Shown in pieces: positions 1-59,217 of a stretch of 64,000 bases of DNA. Location of the stretch: contig CAXXYH010000004.1 of assembly GCA_963677925.2 (NCBI GenBank), positions 2,144,001-2,208,000 on the forward strand. The letters run 5' to 3'. The notes under the pieces were generated by a model that saw nothing but the letters and a program-made list of their open reading frames with translations, did not search any database and was not told the origin of the DNA. The stretch is from Spirochaetia bacterium. GTDB lineage: Bacteria; Spirochaetota; Spirochaetia; UBA9216. The stretch's first letter is position 1. The number at the start of each line of letters is the position of its first letter. The position numbers were made by a program, and so were the translations under genes.

Positions 1-831
1 CTTGCCAGGGGCAAAAGTATAAGTCAGGATATCAATTTGCTCTGTGAGCAGTTTAAGGAACTGCAGGATAAGGGGTATCTTGAAGTAATACTGACGGGCG
101 TGAATATCTCATCATATAAAGATAAATCAGGTGCTGATTTTTCAGATCTGCTGAAGAGACTATGTGATATCAGGGACAAGGCACGTATACGGCTTTCTTC
201 GATTGAGCCGGAATCTATAACCCCCGGGCTTGCGGAAGTTTTAAAGGATCCGGGAATCTGTCCCCATTTTCATATTCCTGTTCAGTCAGGAAGCGATAAA
301 ATTCTTGAGGTTATGAAAAGGAAAAACCGTCGGTCTCAGATAATTGAAGCGGTCAGGCTGCTTCGTGAAGCTAAAGAAGACCCCTTTATTGCTGCGGATA
401 TAATTGCAGGTTTTCCCGGTGAAACAGATGAGGATTACCGGCAGAGTTTCAGCCTCCTTGATGACTGTGATTTCAGTGCGCTGCATGTGTTCCCCTATTC
501 ATCAAGGCCCGGAACTGCCGCCAGTACGATGAAAAACCGCGTTCCCGAAAGAATTACATCACAAAGGACTGCTGAATTGCGTGAACTTTCGAGCCGTAAG
601 ACCCGTGAATATACCGAAAGATGGATGAGTAGAGAGCTTGAGGTTTTAATCGAAGAAAAAAAAGATAACTGTTCTTACGGAATCAGCTCTAATTATTTGA
701 AAACTGTTTTTTGTGATATACTTAAGGAAGAGGGAAGTCTGTGTACTGTAAAACCTGAACCGGGACTCTCTTCTGATAAAACCGCCGGTTCCGACACTAT
801 TCCCTGCCGATTTATAAAATGGATAGTTTGA
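1..831 (+). CDS. mtaB: tRNA methylthiotransferase, MtaB/MiaB radical SAM family (5'-truncated by window)
   Basis: Motifs EVILTGVN, RIRLSSIEP, CPHFHIPVQSGSD, DIIAGFPGET, LHVFPYSSRPGT typical of MtaB; reading frame is open to the window edge. Confidence 0.8.
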   Translation, partial: LARGKSISQDINLLCEQFKELQDKGYLEVILTGVNISSYKDKSGADFSDLLKRLCDIRDKARIRLSSIEPESITPGLAEVLKDPGICPHFHIPVQSGSDKILEVMKRKNRRSQIIEAVRLLREAKEDPFIAADIIAGFPGETDEDYRQSFSLLDDCDFSALHVFPYSSRPGTAASTMKNRVPERITSQRTAELRELSSRKTREYTERWMSRELEVLIEEKKDNCSYGISSNYLKTVFCDILKEEGSLCTVKPEPGLSSDKTAGSDTIPCRFIKWIV

Positions 832-875
832 TTTTATAAGTTCTTTTGACGATAATTCTGATTAGGAGGGCTGTA

Positions 876-1487
876 ATGAAAATAAAACTCATTATGGTTG
901 CAGTACTTATATCAGCTGCCCTGATACTTGCTTCCTGCCAGCAGGTTTTTACCAGTAGTGTTTACACTCTTTTAGGTTATTCAACCGATATGTCCAGTAT
1001 GACCGATGAGCAGAAGGTTTCTTACGCACAGGATCTGCTTAGTTCCGGCAGCGCAGAAGATATGCAAACGGCATATGATGAGATTTTTGCCATGCTTGGT
1101 GATGATCTGAGTACTGCTGATCCGGAACTGGTGCTCCTTGCTGCCGATTTAGCTGTAGGCGCCTCAGGTCTTGGAGATGCTGTAACAGACGGTCTGGAAC
1201 TGCTGACTTCCGGTTCCGAGGATGCTGATGCTATGGCTAGCCTGATTGAAGGCATTGATACGGATAACCTTGCGGATGCAGTTACACTGATGGAAGCTGC
1301 TGAAGCCAGCGGTACCGACATTACCGAAGAACAGTATGCCAATGCTGCCGCAGCCCAGCTGCTTGTAGCTGCAGACGGTGATATAAATAATCTGGATTTT
1401 GAGACTCCTGATGATGATCTTCAGCAGGCCCTCGACTGGGCTGTACTTGGCGGAGTAGATCTGGAATCTCTGTTTGCCGGCGGTTGA
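876..1487 (+). CDS. Hypothetical acidic lipoprotein
   Basis: AGGAGG RBS before ATG 876; MKIK + hydrophobic stretch + LASC lipobox. Confidence 0.7.
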   Translation: MKIKLIMVAVLISAALILASCQQVFTSSVYTLLGYSTDMSSMTDEQKVSYAQDLLSSGSAEDMQTAYDEIFAMLGDDLSTADPELVLLAADLAVGASGLGDAVTDGLELLTSGSEDADAMASLIEGIDTDNLADAVTLMEAAEASGTDITEEQYANAAAAQLLVAADGDINNLDFETPDDDLQQALDWAVLGGVDLESLFAGG

Positions 1488-1517
1488 TAGCACAATAAAT
1501 ATAAAACGGAGATTCTG

Positions 1518-2708
1518 ATGCCTAAACGACTGATAATAATTTTTTCTATTGCCATTCTGGCGGTAACTGCCAGTCCTGCTTTTTCTGCTCCGGATTTTTA
1601 TATGGAGGATATCCATATACCTTCTGCTATTGACTCAGGAATGGGCGGACCTTATCCGACAGACAACGAGGGGCTTGAAACTATATTTGCAAATCCAGCC
1701 TCATTTAAATCTGCAGAAACAGATGTTACCTTTACAGATTTCAGTCTGCTGCTTAAAGGGCCTATTTTTGATATTACCAGCCTTGTAATAAGCAGTATGT
1801 CCGGAGGAGGAGAGCTTACCGACATTCTTTCTTCCTCTTCGGCCCAGAGTATTCTAAGCAATATTTACACGGGTGTTGAATTGACAGGTCCAATTTATTT
1901 CGGATACACCGGAGACGGACTTGGCTTCGGACTTTTTAATAACACAGATATCACTTTAAGAGAGTCAGGAACACTTGCTCTGACTGTTGAAACAACCGAA
2001 GATATTCTGCTTTGCGGCGGTTATGCATTCAGAATTCCGCTTTCCAGAGATCAGACTCATGTTCTTGATGCCGGAGTAATGATGAAAGGCGGTGTGGAAG
2101 GCAGTCTTGAGATTGAGAAATCGCTTCTTGAACTCACCACGCTGCTCTCTGATTTAAGTCTTGATATTGTTATGAAATCTCCCTTTAGTTTCAGTACGTT
2201 GATCGGTCTTGATGCAGGCCTTCTGTACACCTGGGAGGGGCTTCTTTCCGTCGGCCTTACGGCTCAGGATATATACTCTCCTGCAATCAAATATACATAT
2301 GATACCGGGCTTACCGGCTTTATTGATCCAGCTACAGTGGCACCGACTCCTGAGTATGGACTGATTCCGTTTAAACTGAATGCAGGTGTTGAGCTCAATC
2401 CGGAAATCCCGGCACTTCAGCAGTACATAACAGATTTCCGGTTCCTGGTTGCCTATGATGATATTCTAGATTTCTGGCTTTATCCTTCAGAGGCTGAAAA
2501 CGCCCTGCTTCATATCAAAACCGGCCTTGAGCTTACCATGCTTGAGATTCTATCGGTACGTGTTGGTATGGCGGAAGGCTTACTGAATGCAGGACTTAGT
2601 CTGGATCTGCAGCTGTTTACTCTAAACGCGGCGATGTTCGGCACAGAACTTTCAAGTGTGCCAGGTTTGAACCCAGTTTATAATATGATAATCAGTTTTG
2701 TTTTATAG
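1518..2708 (+). CDS. Putative outer-membrane beta-barrel protein (TraF/DUF5723/FadL-like)
   Basis: Signal peptide; 'GMGG...FANPA' N-terminal motif; amphipathic beta-strand pattern. Confidence 0.55.
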   Translation: MPKRLIIIFSIAILAVTASPAFSAPDFYMEDIHIPSAIDSGMGGPYPTDNEGLETIFANPASFKSAETDVTFTDFSLLLKGPIFDITSLVISSMSGGGELTDILSSSSAQSILSNIYTGVELTGPIYFGYTGDGLGFGLFNNTDITLRESGTLALTVETTEDILLCGGYAFRIPLSRDQTHVLDAGVMMKGGVEGSLEIEKSLLELTTLLSDLSLDIVMKSPFSFSTLIGLDAGLLYTWEGLLSVGLTAQDIYSPAIKYTYDTGLTGFIDPATVAPTPEYGLIPFKLNAGVELNPEIPALQQYITDFRFLVAYDDILDFWLYPSEAENALLHIKTGLELTMLEILSVRVGMAEGLLNAGLSLDLQLFTLNAAMFGTELSSVPGLNPVYNMIISFVL

Positions 2709-25489: not shown

Positions 25490-25761
25490 CAATGTGAAAG
25501 GAACGTGACTAAGTCTGAAAACTTCGGTTTAAAACTTAGCTTAGAGTTTGTTTACAAACTTTAACGCTTTAATAGTCATGGAAAAACAGCCTGTTAGGCA
25601 AAAAACAACGCAGTGAAGTTCAGTTTACTGAACTTCCGAGATGCAGCTTGCTGCATCTCCGCTCTCTTTCTTCCTTTTTTATATTAAGTGAAGGTCAACT
25701 GGTTTTACTCGCTTGGAGATTTACCATGTAAAGCTCTGGAGGAAATCTTTGATTTTCTTTC

Positions 25762-25835: not shown

Positions 25836-26072
25836 ATAGATATTTAACCGGTAACGGTTTGATATATTAAAGTCCTTTTTGTAGGGCTTTAAGACATAGT
25901 CTCCATAGAGAGATTTAAGTTTGGCATTGTCAAACTTAAGAGAATACGGAATTAAGAATTCAGTATTCTCCGTTCTTTAAAATAGATAAAGACTGTTGAA
26001 AGATTACAGTTTTGAAAACTTATCCATATAACAGGGAGTGGATAAGTATAGGGAAGGGTTAAGAGGTAATAT

Positions 26073-29060
<2,988 letters not shown>

Positions 29061-29203
29061 TATTTCCCCTTAATCAATTCCCGGAGAATTGAGCCAATAG
29101 GCTGCATGGACTAAGAAGTCCTGTGAATAGCAACCTATCGTGCCCAAACTCAATCCCTGTTCATTCTGCAATAGCAGGATGTAAGAATAATTTTGAATAA
29201 TTA

Positions 29204-29313
<110 letters not shown>

Positions 29314-29900
29314 TTTTTTTTATTAATTTAGACCAACGGTCTAAATTAATAAAATATGAGACCTAAGAAGAGCTTGAAGTTTGGTAATACCAAACTTCAG
29401 AGAAAGTTCTGAATATTAAGCGGTTATATAAACCAATAGAAGTCTGGAAGATAACCAGAGATAAATGGCAGCAAAGCCACTTTCTCCGGTCATATGCCAG
29501 GCTTTTTTTTATTAATTTCAAAAAGCAGTATTACAATTCTTAACTTTTAAAATAATCACTCCCGCTAACGCGTGAACTGATGTAACTTTTTTCACGTAAA
29601 ATCTATCTAAACTAATAATTTGCGGGACTACGTTAGGCCCCATAGGCTCACCCTGAAAGTAGCACAGCAGGCTTAGCCTGATGTATAGTAGGTCATTGCC
29701 AGGCTTTTTTTTATTTTCACAGAACTTCTGTTCTGCGAATATAAAATATTAGTCTAAGATGTGGTAAGAAGTTTAGCTTGCTAAACTTCAGAGAAAGTTC
29801 TGAATATTAAGCGGTTATATAAACCAATAGAAGTCTGGAAGATAACCAGAGATAAATGGCAGTAAAGCCACTTTCTCCGGTCATATGCCAGGTTTTTTTT
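29314..29900 (+). repeat. Structured repeat array after 5S (units A-B-A)
   Basis: GGTCAT(A/T)-TGCCAGG + T-tract recurs ending at 29313, 29502, 29704, ~29892 (spacing 189, 202, ~189). Confidence 0.85.
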
Positions 29901-30046
29901 ATTAATTTCAAAATATAGTTAATTTATAGGAAAACAATAACCTCAGATAACATGAACTCTGATTATTTACATTTTATACATTTGTTGACAGTTTAATATT
30001 TACTAAACATAATGAAACAGTAGATTTAAAATTTCTGGAGGATTTA

Positions 30047-31051
30047 TTGGCTAAGCTTAAAGATGTCGCTAAACTGGCCGGTGTATCTGTTGCAACTGTT
30101 TCACAGGCTCTCAACGGAAAATACGTAAACGAGAAAACTAGAGAAAATATTTTAAGAATAGCTTCTGAATTGAAATACTATCCCAATAAAAGCGGGAGAA
30201 CACTGATAACCGGTAAAGCTTCTGCAATCACTCTGGTTATTATTAACTCAACAAAACATGCAGACATTGTTCATGAGAGCACATTCTTTTACCATATAAT
30301 CCAGGGTATTATACAGATAGCAGAAAAAAATCACCATAGTTTTATATTAGATGTTCGTAATTGGGAAGATGATGATCTTATCGCTTATTTTACTCGAAAA
30401 GTCAATGATCGTTCTTCGGACGGATTAATAATAATACCTCAATTCATACATCCATATATATTCATTGAAGCTTTGCAGGATTTTCCGGTTGTTTTTTTAA
30501 ATGCGTCCGATAGAAGAGAAAAGCTAAATACTGTTTATATGGATAACGAGATGGGAGCAGCTCTTATGGCCAGGCATATAATTGCAAAGGGATACAGGAA
30601 TGTAGGTGTAATTCATGGTCCTGAAGATCATTACGACGGTTATCTGAGGAAACAGGCTTTTTTGAAAATTATGAATGACTACGGATTTGGGATAACTGAA
30701 AAATATCAGGTTTATGGAGATTATACTATCGAGAGCGGCTATCTCGGGGCTAAAGTTCTTTTTCAGCAGTGCAAACCTGATGCTATTTTTTGTGCGAATG
30801 ATTATATGGCTGCCGGAGCTATGAGGTATATCAAGGAAAAGGGCCTGCGGATTCCTGAGGATGTTGCTGTAAGCGGTTATGATAATGTGGAGCTTTCCCA
30901 GGCAGTCTATCCCATGCTGACGACCGTCGATGGTGGTATGTTTAAGTTAGGCCGGGCTCTGGCGGAAAATCTCTTTAAGGTTATGAAGACCGGAGGGCAT
31001 AATCTGAATATCCGTCTTCTACCTGAACTGGTAGAAAGAGGAACTGCATAA
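30047..31051 (+). CDS. LacI-family transcriptional regulator
   Basis: LKDVAKLAGVSVATVSQALN; AIFCANDYMA; IPEDVAVSGYD. Confidence 0.95.
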   Translation: MAKLKDVAKLAGVSVATVSQALNGKYVNEKTRENILRIASELKYYPNKSGRTLITGKASAITLVIINSTKHADIVHESTFFYHIIQGIIQIAEKNHHSFILDVRNWEDDDLIAYFTRKVNDRSSDGLIIIPQFIHPYIFIEALQDFPVVFLNASDRREKLNTVYMDNEMGAALMARHIIAKGYRNVGVIHGPEDHYDGYLRKQAFLKIMNDYGFGITEKYQVYGDYTIESGYLGAKVLFQQCKPDAIFCANDYMAAGAMRYIKEKGLRIPEDVAVSGYDNVELSQAVYPMLTTVDGGMFKLGRALAENLFKVMKTGGHNLNIRLLPELVERGTA

Positions 31052-53475: not shown

Positions 53476-53749
53476 CAATGTGAAAGGAACGTGACTAAGT
53501 CTGAAAACTTCGGTTTTAAAACTTAGCTTAGAGTTTGTTTACAAGCTTTAACGCTTTAATAGTCATGGAAAAAACAGCCTGTTAGGCAAAAAACAACGCA
53601 GTGAAGTTCAGTTTACTGAACTTCCGAGATGCAGCTTGCTGCATCTCCGCTCTCTTTCTTCCTTTTTTATATTAAGTGAAGGTCAACTGGTTTTACTCGC
53701 TTGGAGATTTACCATGTAAAGCTCTGGAGGAAATCTTTGATTTTCTTTC

Positions 53750-53823: not shown

Positions 53824-54060
53824 ATAGATATTTAACCGGTAACGGTTTGATATATTAAAGTCCTTTTTGTAGGGCTTTAAGACATAGTCTCCATAGAGAG
53901 ATTTAAGTTTGGCATTGTCAAACTTAAGAGAATACGGAATTAAGAATTCAGTATTCTCCGTTCTTTAAAATAGATAAAGACTGTTGAAAGATTACAGTTT
54001 TGAAAACTTATCCATATAACAGGGAGTGGATAAGTATAGGGAAGGGTTAAGAGGTAATAT

Positions 54061-57048
<2,988 letters not shown>

Positions 57049-57191
57049 TATTTCCCCTTAATCAATTCCCGGAGAATTGAGCCAATAGGCTGCATGGACT
57101 AAGAAGTCCTGTGAATAGCAACCTATCGTGCCCAAACTCAATCCCTGTTCATTCTGCAATAGCAGGATGTAAGAATAATTTTGAATAATTA

Positions 57192-57301
<110 letters not shown>

Positions 57302-58335
57302 TTTTTTTTATTAATTTGGTTTTCATAACCAAATTAATAAAAATACAGTCTAAGATAACATAAGAAGTTTAGCTTGCTAAACTTCAGAGATTGCTCATGA
57401 TTAAAATATTGGGTTAAAAGAAGAACAGAGTCTGGAAGGAATACTGGAATAAAAAGCTGTCTGCAGCTATCTCCGGTCATATGCCAGGCTTTTTTTTATT
57501 AATTTCAAAAAGCAGTATTACAATTCTTAACTTTTAAAATAATCACTCCCGCTAACGCGTGAACTGATGTAACTTTTTTCACGTAAAATCTATCTAAACT
57601 AATAATTTGCGGGACTACGTTAGGCCCCATAGGCTCACCCTGAAAGTAGCACAGCAGGCTTAGCCTGATGTATAGTAGGTCATCGCCAGGCTTTTTTTTA
57701 TTAATTAAGTCTAAAGACTTAATTAATAAAATATTAGTATAAGATGTGGTAAGAAGTTCTGCAAAGCAGAACTTCAGAGAAAGTACTTAAGTAAAATTGA
57801 GTACTCAGAGATAATAGATAGTCTGGAAGGAATGCTGAGAATAAATAGTAGCAAAGCTACTTTCTCCGGTCATAACCCGCCAGGCTTTTTTTTATTAATT
57901 TGGTTTTGTAAACCAAATTAATAAAAATACAGTCTAAGATAACATAAGAAGTTTAGCTTGCTAAACTTCAGAGATAGCTCATGATTAAAATATTGGGCTT
58001 AAAAGAAGAACAGAGTCTGGAAGGAATACTGGAATTAAAAGCTGTCTGCAGCTATCTCCGGTCATATGCCAGGCTTTTTTTTATTAAATCGAATTTACAA
58101 ACTTTGTTATTCTTAACCCTTAAACCAAATACTCCTGGTAACGAGAGGACTGACATTCCTGATATTCACGAAATGATTTATATAAAACTTAAATGTTAGC
58201 GGGACTGTGTTTGGCTATGCATTTGTGCCCGAATAAGCAGCACAGCAGGCAACGCCTGATGTATAGTAGCTGGCATGTTCAGTGTTAACGAACTGGAGAA
58301 GTTTCTATGGAACTTCCTTTTACCGTTTTTTTATT
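57302..58335 (+). repeat. Structured repeat array after 5S (units A-B-A-A-B')
   Basis: GGTCAT..GCCAGGC + T-tract ends at 57301, 57489, 57691, 57885, 58074 (spacing 188, 202, 194, 189); diverged B' unit to ~58270. Confidence 0.85.
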
Positions 58336-58416
58336 AGGTTAAATTCCTTTGTCAAAAAATAGATTATGTTGTAATTATCTAGCTAAATATAATATAGTGT
58401 TTTATAGCTTTTGAAG

Positions 58417-59217
58417 ATGGAGAAAAAAATCATCGAAAATCCTGAATATTCCGACGCCAAGAAAGATTTAAAACTTACTAATCTTCAGAAAATGACTTAT
58501 ATTTTAAAGATCCTCAATCAGCCGCCTTATAAATTTACGGCGCAGGAAATCAGTAATCTTACAGGTATTAATCGTACTACCGTTTATAGAACATTGATGG
58601 TTCTTGTTGAAGAAGACTTTATTCTTCAGGATGAAGAAACACGGAAATTTGCAGTAGGTCCGATGTTATACCATATAGGACTTGGGTATCTGAATAACTT
58701 TCATTTCAAAGATGAAATTTACAAAACGCTTGAAAAATTAGCTGATATCACCTCGGAAGCCATTGGAATCGCTGTAAGAGAGGGCAACAAGATAATCTCC
58801 CTGTACGAGATAGATATTCAGCAGCCTTTAAAAATGAGTTATCCGCCAGGTTCATATTATCCGATGAACAGAGGCTGTTTCGGGAAACTTCTTATGGCCT
58901 ACCATGACCGAAATACTGTTCGAAAACTGCTTGAGCAAAGCAGTTTTGAAAAGTTATTTCCAAATACACTGACTGAAACAGATGAAATTCTTCATGAGTA
59001 TCAGAATATACGTAACAATGGATATGTGATTAGTGACGGAGAAGGATACAGTGTAATTGCTGCGGGAGTAGGTGTCCCGGTTTATAACACAAGAAATCAA
59101 GTTAAAGCCTGCCTTGCTGTTTCTTTTGTAAAGGATGACGATTTCGAAATTAAAAAAGATGAGCTGCTGAAATTATTACAGGAATATTCCAAAGAATTAA
59201 CAATTTATATGCCTTAA
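58417..59217 (+). CDS. IclR-family transcriptional regulator
   Basis: HTH AQEISNLTGINRTTVYRTL; FGKLLMAY; IRNNGYVIS. Confidence 0.92.
   Translation: MEKKIIENPEYSDAKKDLKLTNLQKMTYILKILNQPPYKFTAQEISNLTGINRTTVYRTLMVLVEEDFILQDEETRKFAVGPMLYHIGLGYLNNFHFKDEIYKTLEKLADITSEAIGIAVREGNKIISLYEIDIQQPLKMSYPPGSYYPMNRGCFGKLLMAYHDRNTVRKLLEQSSFEKLFPNTLTETDEILHEYQNIRNNGYVISDGEGYSVIAAGVGVPVYNTRNQVKACLAVSFVKDDDFEIKKDELLKLLQEYSKELTIYMP

Follow-up and report, generated by a model that had tools for sequence, protein, structure and literature searches.

Here we describe arrays of structured units that lie directly behind the 5S rRNA genes of a Spirochaetia bacterium, in a stretch of 64,000 nt (positions 2,144,001 to 2,208,000 of the forward strand of contig CAXXYH010000004.1, assembly GCA_963677925.2). 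This whole stretch is referred to as the window, its positions are counted from its first letter, and the genome is denoted G000. Judged by their layout, the units are of a described kind, the tRNA-linked repeats (TLRs) of Escherichia coli; judged by their sequence, they are a new, unrelated family in Spirochaetia. We regard the kind as known because the TLR layout was confirmed on E. coli DNA, and the sequence family as new because membership by sequence fails. By analogy with E. coli, we lean towards reading the units as spirochaete counterparts of TLRs, which would be co-transcribed with the rRNA and ended by a mimic of the 5S 3' end.

Arrays of units in the trailers of the rrn operons

The window contains two rrn operons, both with the gene order 16S, tRNA-Ala, 23S and 5S. 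The 5S gene of operon 1 ends in GGTCATTGCCAGGC and is followed without a gap by eight T (T8). A 29-nt block, AGTAGGTCATTGCCAGGCTTTTTTTTATT or a variant of it, closes with GCCAGG(C), T8 and ATT; it starts at 29296 and again at 29485, 29687 and 29875, at spacings of 189, 202 and 188 nt. A preliminary description of this DNA had pointed out such a threefold, nearly regular recurrence of the 5S end after the true 5S, and had given the order of the units in this trailer as A-B-A; both observations were confirmed. The motif GCCAGGYTTTTTT matches nine times in the window, against 0.01 matches expected, and nine or more matches occurred in none of 100 shuffles. All nine lie on the + strand and are confined to the two rrn trailers.

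All three 5S genes of the genome are followed by an array, always on the strand of the 5S gene. The order of the units is A-B-A in operon 1, A-B-A-A-B' in operon 2 and B-A in a third operon (contig C4, near 1264218). The comparison of trailers that the preliminary description had proposed thus shows units behind every 5S gene, in a number and order that vary between operons and also between species (see below). The ten units (three, five and two per locus) comprise six A and four B units, and copies from different operons are 99-100% identical. Outside the rrn trailers, blastn against the 5.04-Mb genome identified only a weak 43-nt B-like piece, adjoining a tRNA-Arg gene. The arrays separate the rrn operons from co-oriented regulator-like genes.

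Inside the operon 1 array, only two open reading frames (ORFs) reach 40 aa; both lie on the minus strand, with lengths of 52 and 41 aa. No ORF is conserved across the unit copies, and an 18-codon frame of the first A copy (A1) is stopped or start-less in other copies, in agreement with the earlier statement that the region has no credible ORF. An assembly artefact, already thought improbable, is an unlikely source of the array, because contigs of the public run X1 tile positions 29113-30100 with 0 differences and span every unit junction, and because related arrays are found in seven other genomes; X1 is possibly the source sample of the genome. Two further runs, X2 and X3, cover small shares, and one X2 contig links a B-like start to an A-like start via 111 other letters.

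In both operons of the window, T8 directly follows the mature 5S 3' end (29314-29321 and 57302-57309), with no separate terminator hairpin. Since the T-tract adjoins the 5S without a hairpin of its own, the stem of the terminator may, in this lineage, be 5S helix I itself.

Table 1. Coordinates of the units, their parts and related elements (window positions, or contig and position in G000)
Feature	Position	Strand	Evidence or remark
5S rRNA, rrn operon 1	29205-29313	+	Rfam RF00001, 97.5 bits
Unit A copy 1 (A1), 197 nt, from the T-tract behind 5S to its own T-tract	29314-29510	+	model R1, 212 bits
P1 hairpin of A1, 17 bp, perfect	29318-29354	+	5' arm is the preceding T-tract (TTTTAT.../...ATAAAA)
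P2 hairpin of A1 (GAAGT...ACTTC)	29375-29399	+	first half of the twin-hairpin motif
Long-range helix P-LR, 5' strand GAGAAAGT	29400-29407	+	RNAalifold
Long-range helix P-LR, 3' strand ACTTTCTC	29479-29486	+	
GTCTGG, copy of the 5' strand of 5S helix I	29442-29447	+	sequence; MFE folds of 10 copies
5S-end mimic CGGTCATATGCCAGGC and T8 of A1	29487-29510	+	
Unit B, short form	29503-29712	+	blastn; three genome copies, 99.5-100% identical
Antisense segment CTCCCGCTAACGC of unit B	29559-29571	+	perfect reverse complement (13 nt) of 5S 29283-29295, helix IV region
5S 3'-end copy AGTAGGTCATTGCCAGGC and T8, end of unit B	29687-29712	+	100% identical, trailer included
Unit A copy 2 (A2)	29705-29901	+	model R1, 187 bits; P1 and P2 differ from A1
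5S rRNA, rrn operon 2	57193-57301		
rrn operon 2 trailer	57302-58082	+	A 57302-57497, B 57490-57699, A 57692-57893, A 57886-58082
Unit B' (long form), operon 2	58083-58332	+	B body, two further hairpins and a degenerate end, not an exact 5S-end copy
Twin hairpin (GAAGT..ACTTC, C, GAGATGCAGC..GCTGCATCTC, C), 16S-tRNA-Ala spacer, operon 1	25615-25660	+	weak R1 match 25547-25682
Twin hairpin, tRNA-Ala-23S spacer, operon 1, then directly GTTCTTTAAAAT	25916-25971	+	R1 match 25862-25997, E 5e-6
Twin hairpins, spacers of operon 2	near 53534-53670 and 53850-53985		
Twin hairpin outside rrn	C4:1782560-1782640	-	upstream of an Na/Pi-symporter-like gene
Trailer of tRNA-Leu C4:143158	C4:143242-143385		two tandem units of ~65 nt
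Trailer of tRNA-Ala C4:288454	C4:288528-288721		inverted T-arm copy, G+C-rich folded core, direct 3'-end copy
Trailer of tRNA-Leu C4:1272810	C4:1272894-1273096		inverted T-arm copy, folded core, direct 3'-end copy
Trailer of tRNA-Arg C3:1266469	C3:1266543-1266714		inverted T-arm copy, G+C-rich folded core, direct 3'-end copy

Fold of unit A and its conservation

The minimum free energy (MFE) predicted for A1 is -65.4 kcal/mol (z -8.4 against shuffles), and all A copies fold far better than shuffled sequence. The two hairpins that had been recognised beforehand, here named P1 and P2, are present as described (Table 1). Across copies P1 has 17-20 bp, with UUUUAU in its 5' arm and AUAAAA at the end of its 3' arm, and its inner part is wholly different in sequence between copies with the pairing kept. 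The 8 nt that follow P2 (GAGAAAGU in this genome) pair with the 8 nt that precede CGGUCAU some 70 nt further on (ACUUUCUC), forming a long-range helix, P-LR. The corresponding strands are UAAUGAGC and GCUCAUUA in G008, and GGAAAAGC and GCUUUUCC in G061. Enclosed by P-LR are two hairpins, one variable and the other small and apical, as well as the hexamer GUCUGG, which comes with an invariant UGGAA; on the 3' side of P-LR follow CGGUCAUAUGCCAGGC and U8.

In 5S helix I, GUCUGG forms one strand and CCAGGC the other; the 3' module of unit A copies both strands together with the T-tract. According to the fold model, GTCTGG would pair with CCAGGC (29497-29502) in a pseudoknot with P-LR; we infer this pairing, since only one-sided changes are seen in it. 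Some A copies have an extra hairpin between GGUCAU and GCCAGGC. The A copies are mosaics, in which P1, P2 and the 3' part are found in varying combinations; A1 and A2, for instance, have a 131-nt 3' block in common at 94% identity.

Covariation was analysed in 12 A copies from five genomes, which are related sequences in an alignment fitted to the model. In the helices of unit A, 90.1% of the cells are paired, versus 69.6% in shuffles, and 35 of the 42 pairs have changed on both sides, a number reached by none of 500 shuffles. By helix, the compensatory pairs are 10 of 10 in P2, 7 of 8 in P-LR and 12 of 16 in P1. The sequences of P2 and P-LR are nearly wholly replaced among relatives, and their pairing is retained (97.5% and 99% of cells, respectively); when the partner strand is slid, pairing falls to 35-52%. 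Conserved structure in relatives, on which the preliminary description had made its reading depend, was therefore found.

Unit B and its long form

The end of unit B had been described as identical to the 5S end over 19 nt; the identity is confirmed and its extent is larger, running over 29 nt with the trailer. The body of the unit contains a segment antisense to the 5S (Table 1), which is kept, with a length of 13-15 nt, in the B units of G001, G010 and G006; G009 retains a core of 12 nt that differs by a single change. The long form, B', forms the end of an array in G000 and in G001, and is present in G010 too. It has two further hairpins, followed by a degenerate 5S-like end. The helices of units B and B' were drawn by inspection, because the copies of unit B are too divergent for reliable alignment. 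In G006, a copy of the entire 5S 3' domain, degenerate but still recognisable (CGCCATATGGTCTGACTGCG...GAGTAGGTCATCGCCAGGC), lies within the B units. An origin of the unit B end by a single tandem duplication at a 7-nt microhomology was considered and dropped, since the G006 B units share the same 5S end.

Comparison with described families

Searches of Rfam with A, B, B' and the tRNA trailers described below returned no family, either at the gathering score or at E up to 10; the only rows obtained were at chance level (whalefall-1 at 22 bits, TD-2, rli52 and miRNA models). The true 5S genes match RF00001 and no unit does so at E up to 10, which argues against any unit being a 5S gene or pseudogene. 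The model of the RtT family (RF00391, gathering score 45 bits) describes the 178-bp tyrT repeats, which are likewise tandem units ending in the 3' end of their parent gene (19 nt of tRNA-Tyr). It matches no unit or tRNA trailer here, in 29100-30050 at E up to 10 or in the other trailers at E up to 1; the positive control identified four out of four E. coli tyrT-linked units, at 133-138 bits, with rrB remaining without a match. The earlier statement that the array belongs to no described family thus holds for Rfam, and does not hold for the layout, which is that of the E. coli TLRs.

Other kinds of element were also considered. A miniature inverted-repeat transposable element (MITE) or other small transposable element was rejected, as A and B are found only in rrn trailers and the inverted repeat at their border is the variable palindromic P1. 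A CRISPR-like array, which the preliminary description had already dismissed, is ruled out by the long, homologous and folded units and by the lack of an alternation of spacers and repeats. Sponge RNAs of the CsrB/RsmZ type are recognised by many GGA motifs in hairpin loops and by binding to CsrA; each A unit has only 1-3 GGA, around the invariant UGGAA.

TLRs of E. coli have been known since 1978. They have no accepted function or origin, and the term "tRNA-linked repeats" is rare in the literature searched. In the reference genome (NC_000913.3), the 19-nt end of tRNA-Tyr has six occurrences, two of which belong to the tRNA genes while the other four close TLR units; every tyrT TLR also contains an inverted copy, GGGGAAGGAT, predicted to pair with the direct one, and the rrnB trailer repeats AACTGCCAGGCATCAAAT. 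According to Stenum et al. 2021 (PMC8144298), the tRNA and rRNA operons of E. coli harbour 22 TLR units, distributed over ten loci with 1-5 units each; every unit closes with 18-19 bp that repeat exactly the 3' end of the gene upstream of it, and the function of TLRs is given as unknown. The same source reports that E. coli rrn operons end in dual terminators, that rrA, rrB and rrF lie between these terminators behind the 5S and are made by read-through of T1, and that the resulting RNAs, RrA/B/F, are cut next to the repeat of the 5S end and extend from 3 nt past the 5S end to 3 nt past the 5S repeat. These are 173- and ~115-nt RNAs, which bind Hfq and CsrA and have a half-life of ~2.5 min (PMC8144298).

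The spirochaete arrays share this layout. All ten G000 units are placed behind a 5S gene, in the same orientation, and stand head to tail in numbers (three, five and two) that fall within the range of 1-5 units. Like TLRs, the elements here are non-coding, ~170-200 nt per unit, and directly behind a 5S or a tRNA gene. Unit B ends in a copy of the parent gene's end that exceeds the 18-19 bp of TLRs, and the end of unit A resembles that of the parent gene only approximately. As in the tyrT TLRs, unit B and the tRNA trailers hold an inverted copy as well. The differences are that the host belongs to another phylum, that T8 follows the 5S directly without a separate T1 hairpin, that both helix I strands of the 5S are copied in unit A, whose end has one inserted base, and that the arrays combine two types of unit. 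The T1-T2 dual terminators of E. coli likewise are repeated stops behind the 5S with a transcribed segment between them (PMC8144298); the spirochaete trailers, unlike these, have up to six successive T-tracts, and instead of simple hairpins their stems are copies of 5S helix I that close large folded domains.

Distribution in relatives

We found the same kind of array in seven other genomes. Among 150 sampled genomes of the class, covariance models identified A-type units in six, which belong to two families (f1 and f20); none were found in the other 144, many of which are fragmented metagenome-assembled genomes in which rrn operons are often unassembled. Matches to the models at the level of the family (E <=0.01) were obtained in 7 of 11 genomes, the weakest being minimal units or spacer hairpins. 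Every copy checked in a relative was directly 3' of a 5S gene and in the same orientation. A search for the exact A pattern yielded five true loci out of 43 in species genomes, from two genomes, and none out of 65 in metagenomes. This pattern is too narrow, because the variants of G061 and of genus g4 escape it.

The variant of GTC[A/G]T at the unit end is that of the genome's own 5S in five of the six genomes in which both were seen (G000, G001, G006, G007 and G061), with a mismatch in G010. The orthologous trailers of G000 and G001, two species of one genus, differ in the number and the order of their units.

Some trailers of relatives contain other sequences. In G005 (contig C13, locus L038, ~770-1610, minus strand), a gene for a ParE-family toxin and a small ORF upstream of it are located between a full 5S and a diverged 5S copy, which corresponds to query positions 39-106 at 79% identity; the arrangement resembles a cassette that has entered a 5S gene or its immediate neighbourhood. 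The rrn trailers of three genomes of genus g4 (G007, loci L005 and L072; G008, locus L155; G006, locus L156) are interrupted, at or after a unit, by a sequence starting with GTAAGCGGTAA, which we take to resemble the end of an insertion sequence (IS) of the IS66 family. In G006 and G008 a reading frame follows it, the start of which looks transposase-like by eye. A weak Rfam match to TD-2 in the 23S-5S spacer of G001 (locus L010, 1265-1353, minus strand; 29 bits versus a gathering score of 48.7, E 0.22) is probably due to chance.

Twin hairpins in the rRNA spacers and tRNA-linked trailers

The core of unit A is a compound motif, which we call the twin hairpin: GAAGU..ACUUC, one base, GAGAnnnn..nnnnUCUC, and then C. 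We found it also inside the rrn operons, in both 16S-23S spacer segments of operons 1 and 2 (Table 1), and the spacer twin hairpins recur in G001 and G007 with compensatory changes. The sequence that directly follows it in the second spacer of operon 1 (GTTCTTTAAAAT, as RNA GUUCUUUAAAAU) is presumably boxA-like. Scanning the whole genome for the compound motif returned 13 matches, 11 of them in rrn operons and one doubtful; a copy on the minus strand of contig C4 lies outside rrn. The twin hairpin could be a signal related to rRNA processing or antitermination.

Among the 47 tRNA and tmRNA genes identified with ARAGORN, four have a trailer that ends in a copy of the gene's own 3' end (loci L179-L182, Table 1). 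These trailers are small non-coding elements. Those of tRNA-Ala and tRNA-Arg have a 46-nt piece in common at 87% identity, and in the tRNA-Arg and the second tRNA-Leu trailers the inverted and the direct copy are predicted to pair with each other. The E. coli TLRs were rejected as homologues of the tRNA trailers, since pairwise similarity is at chance level, with z <3.5 in eight of nine pairings, save for one 13-nt match. G004 has a twin hairpin that precedes 13 nt copied from the 3' end of a tRNA. No integrase was found near the B-like piece (C3:1266710), whose neighbours encode DUF4384, WD40/PDZ and DUF4037 proteins. The spacer twin hairpins and the tRNA trailers, together with the long-range helix of unit A and the antisense segment of unit B, go beyond what the preliminary description contained.

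Proposed mechanism and alternative explanations

The preliminary description had put forward three mechanisms: co-transcribed small RNAs released by 5S-type processing, serial insertions, and stacked terminators. All three are still live, and the first has a direct experimental precedent in RrA/B/F of E. coli and is also favoured by conserved, covarying structure in relatives. Under this first mechanism, polymerase coming from the rrn promoters would pass a weak, non-canonical stop made of 5S helix I and U8. Once transcribed further, the U-tract would become part of P1; this long and perfect hairpin is a candidate target of RNase III, and cutting there would separate the 5S from the next unit. 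Each unit would then fold into P2, the long-range helix P-LR and the inner hairpins, and would end in the mimic of 5S helix I (GUCUGG / GGUCAU-UGCCAGGC) with U8. The mimic may repeat the 3'-end signal, for termination, for 5S-type trimming, or for both, and the products would be discrete RNAs of ~190-200 nt in an amount tracking rRNA transcription. Arrays may grow, shrink and homogenise by recombination at the ~30-nt repeated end and between rrn operons.

That the units are transcribed from the rrn promoters is suggested by the co-orientation of the units, by the E. coli precedent, and by the lack of a promoter signal in the units themselves: promoter-like sites show no excess over shuffles (6 versus 3.3 +/- 2.0, and 6 versus 4.8 +/- 2.2), and promoters belonging to the units are therefore unsupported. 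Cleavage of P1 is suggested by its long perfect duplex and by the presence of an RNase III gene in the genome. Formation of ends at the mimic and U8 is consistent with the mimicry itself and with the presence of the genome's own 5S variant (CAT or CGT) at the unit end in most of the genomes compared. Recombination at the repeated end and concerted evolution among operons would fit the orthologous trailers of G000 and G001, which differ, and the operon copies, which are nearly identical. The genome also contains genes for RNase Y and csrA. The nearest precedent, RrA/B/F, binds CsrA, and UGGAA is invariant in all A units here.

Several observations weigh against this mechanism. RNase E/G, RNase M5 and Hfq were not found in the genome; Hfq and RNase E/G are the partners in E. 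coli, so the enzymes must differ from those of E. coli, and its enzymology is not simply transferable. None of the public runs containing the stretch is recorded as RNA, and expression of the units is thus predicted from DNA. The U8 right behind the 5S may stop nearly all transcription. Sequence similarity to the E. coli TLRs is not significant; the only match has 13 nt, and one of 300 shuffles scored as high. The end of unit A (GGTCAT-A-TGCCAGGC) is not an exact copy of the 5S end, with 69% identity over the 29-nt block. The trailer differences between species of the same genus fit insertion or neutral turnover equally well. Canonical intrinsic terminators (a short G+C-rich hairpin with a loop of 3-8 nt and a T-run directly after it, on the transcribed strand) were not found by a simple scan of the + strand in 29000-30100 and 57000-58450, because the stems close large domains: the T-runs of the arrays follow stems that close domains of 50-190 nt. 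Finally, the evidence on the strand is weak, with 11 G-U versus 6 A-C cells and with two of ten copies folding better on the minus strand.

For A1 and A2 the minus strand is the one that folds better, and a minus-strand RNA was therefore considered. Such an RNA is the less likely product, as the + strand is favoured in seven of the ten copies (with one tie), G-U cells outnumber A-C cells, and the T-tracts are on the + strand.

If the units are indeed TLR counterparts, they make a second, unrelated family of this design in a distant phylum, with covariation far richer than in the E. coli units. That a second family exists so far away, that it covaries so richly, and that it has a motif in common with the rRNA spacers argue that the TLR design is selected rather than accidental. 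The family also provides comparative handles, by showing which helices matter and that the unit end tracks the genome's own 5S. It suggests that the 3' ends of rrn operons can carry small RNAs coupled to growth rate well beyond enterobacteria.

Alternatively, the units could be stacked terminators or an insulator, which merely stop antiterminated polymerase and shield the downstream gene, with bodies that aid the stem and a released RNA that has no role. Every unit ends in a G+C-rich stem with T7-T9, the arrays sit between rrn operons and co-oriented regulator-like genes, and the dual terminators of E. coli are a parallel. However, one or two terminators would suffice, the stems are of a non-canonical type that the scan did not recover, and P1, P2 and P-LR are kept up by compensatory changes across two families, which a stop signal does not need. 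The twin hairpin, moreover, is also found inside the operon, where termination would harm. We consider this explanation unlikely.

The second mechanism, serial site-specific insertion, takes the units for miniature or decayed integrative elements that target the 3' ends of stable-RNA genes, restore the gene and displace a copy of its 3' end downstream, the newest standing beside the 5S. Tyrosine integrases that target tRNA genes leave the stable-RNA gene intact and its 3' part repeated, in direct orientation, further downstream. In line with this, the 3' end found in every element is that of the gene next to it, be it the 5S, tRNA-Leu (two loci), tRNA-Ala, tRNA-Arg or the tRNA of G004; the order of units varies between operons and between species of the same genus; and the ParE locus of G005 and the IS-like interruptions in G006, G007 and G008 add some weight. 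The arrays are nevertheless unlike attachment-site duplications, in that no recombinase gene accompanies them, their units are 65-250 nt long, an inverted copy pairs with the direct one and internal helices covary. No integrase or transposase is encoded in or beside the G000 arrays, A and B occur in G000 only in rrn trailers save for the weak B-like piece, there are no terminal inverted repeats of MITE type with target duplications, and the orientation is always that of the host gene. The compensatory changes point to selection on the fold, and several G-U pairs hint at an RNA fold, although DNA hairpins could tolerate them too. Such an origin therefore appears improbable to us.

A broader reading, to which we give equally little credence, would place the units in a widespread class of RNAs, the "3'-end mimics", whose amount would follow the synthesis of stable RNA. 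Each would combine a guide-like segment, antisense to its parent RNA, with a copy of the parent's 3' end, and would influence how 5S and tRNA mature or pass quality control. Were this the case, unit B would be antisense over 13-15 nt to 5S helix IV and the tRNA trailers over 10-14 nt to the T-arm, and the units could, for instance, serve the 3'-processing machinery as decoys or chaperones. The twin hairpin, which also occurs in the spacers, would then be a docking site for a factor of rRNA processing or antitermination.

Finally, the units could be functionless, neutral by-products of partial duplications of the 5S 3' domain and of spacer hairpins, multiplied by unequal crossing-over and gene conversion, as the degenerate 5S 3'-domain copies in the G006 B units, the mosaics of common modules seen in the A copies and the near identity of copies between operons (which concerted evolution predicts) might suggest, but we regard this as very doubtful, given that the unit family is retained in two families of the class and that P2 and P-LR are almost wholly replaced in sequence and yet paired, where neutral repeats would decay.

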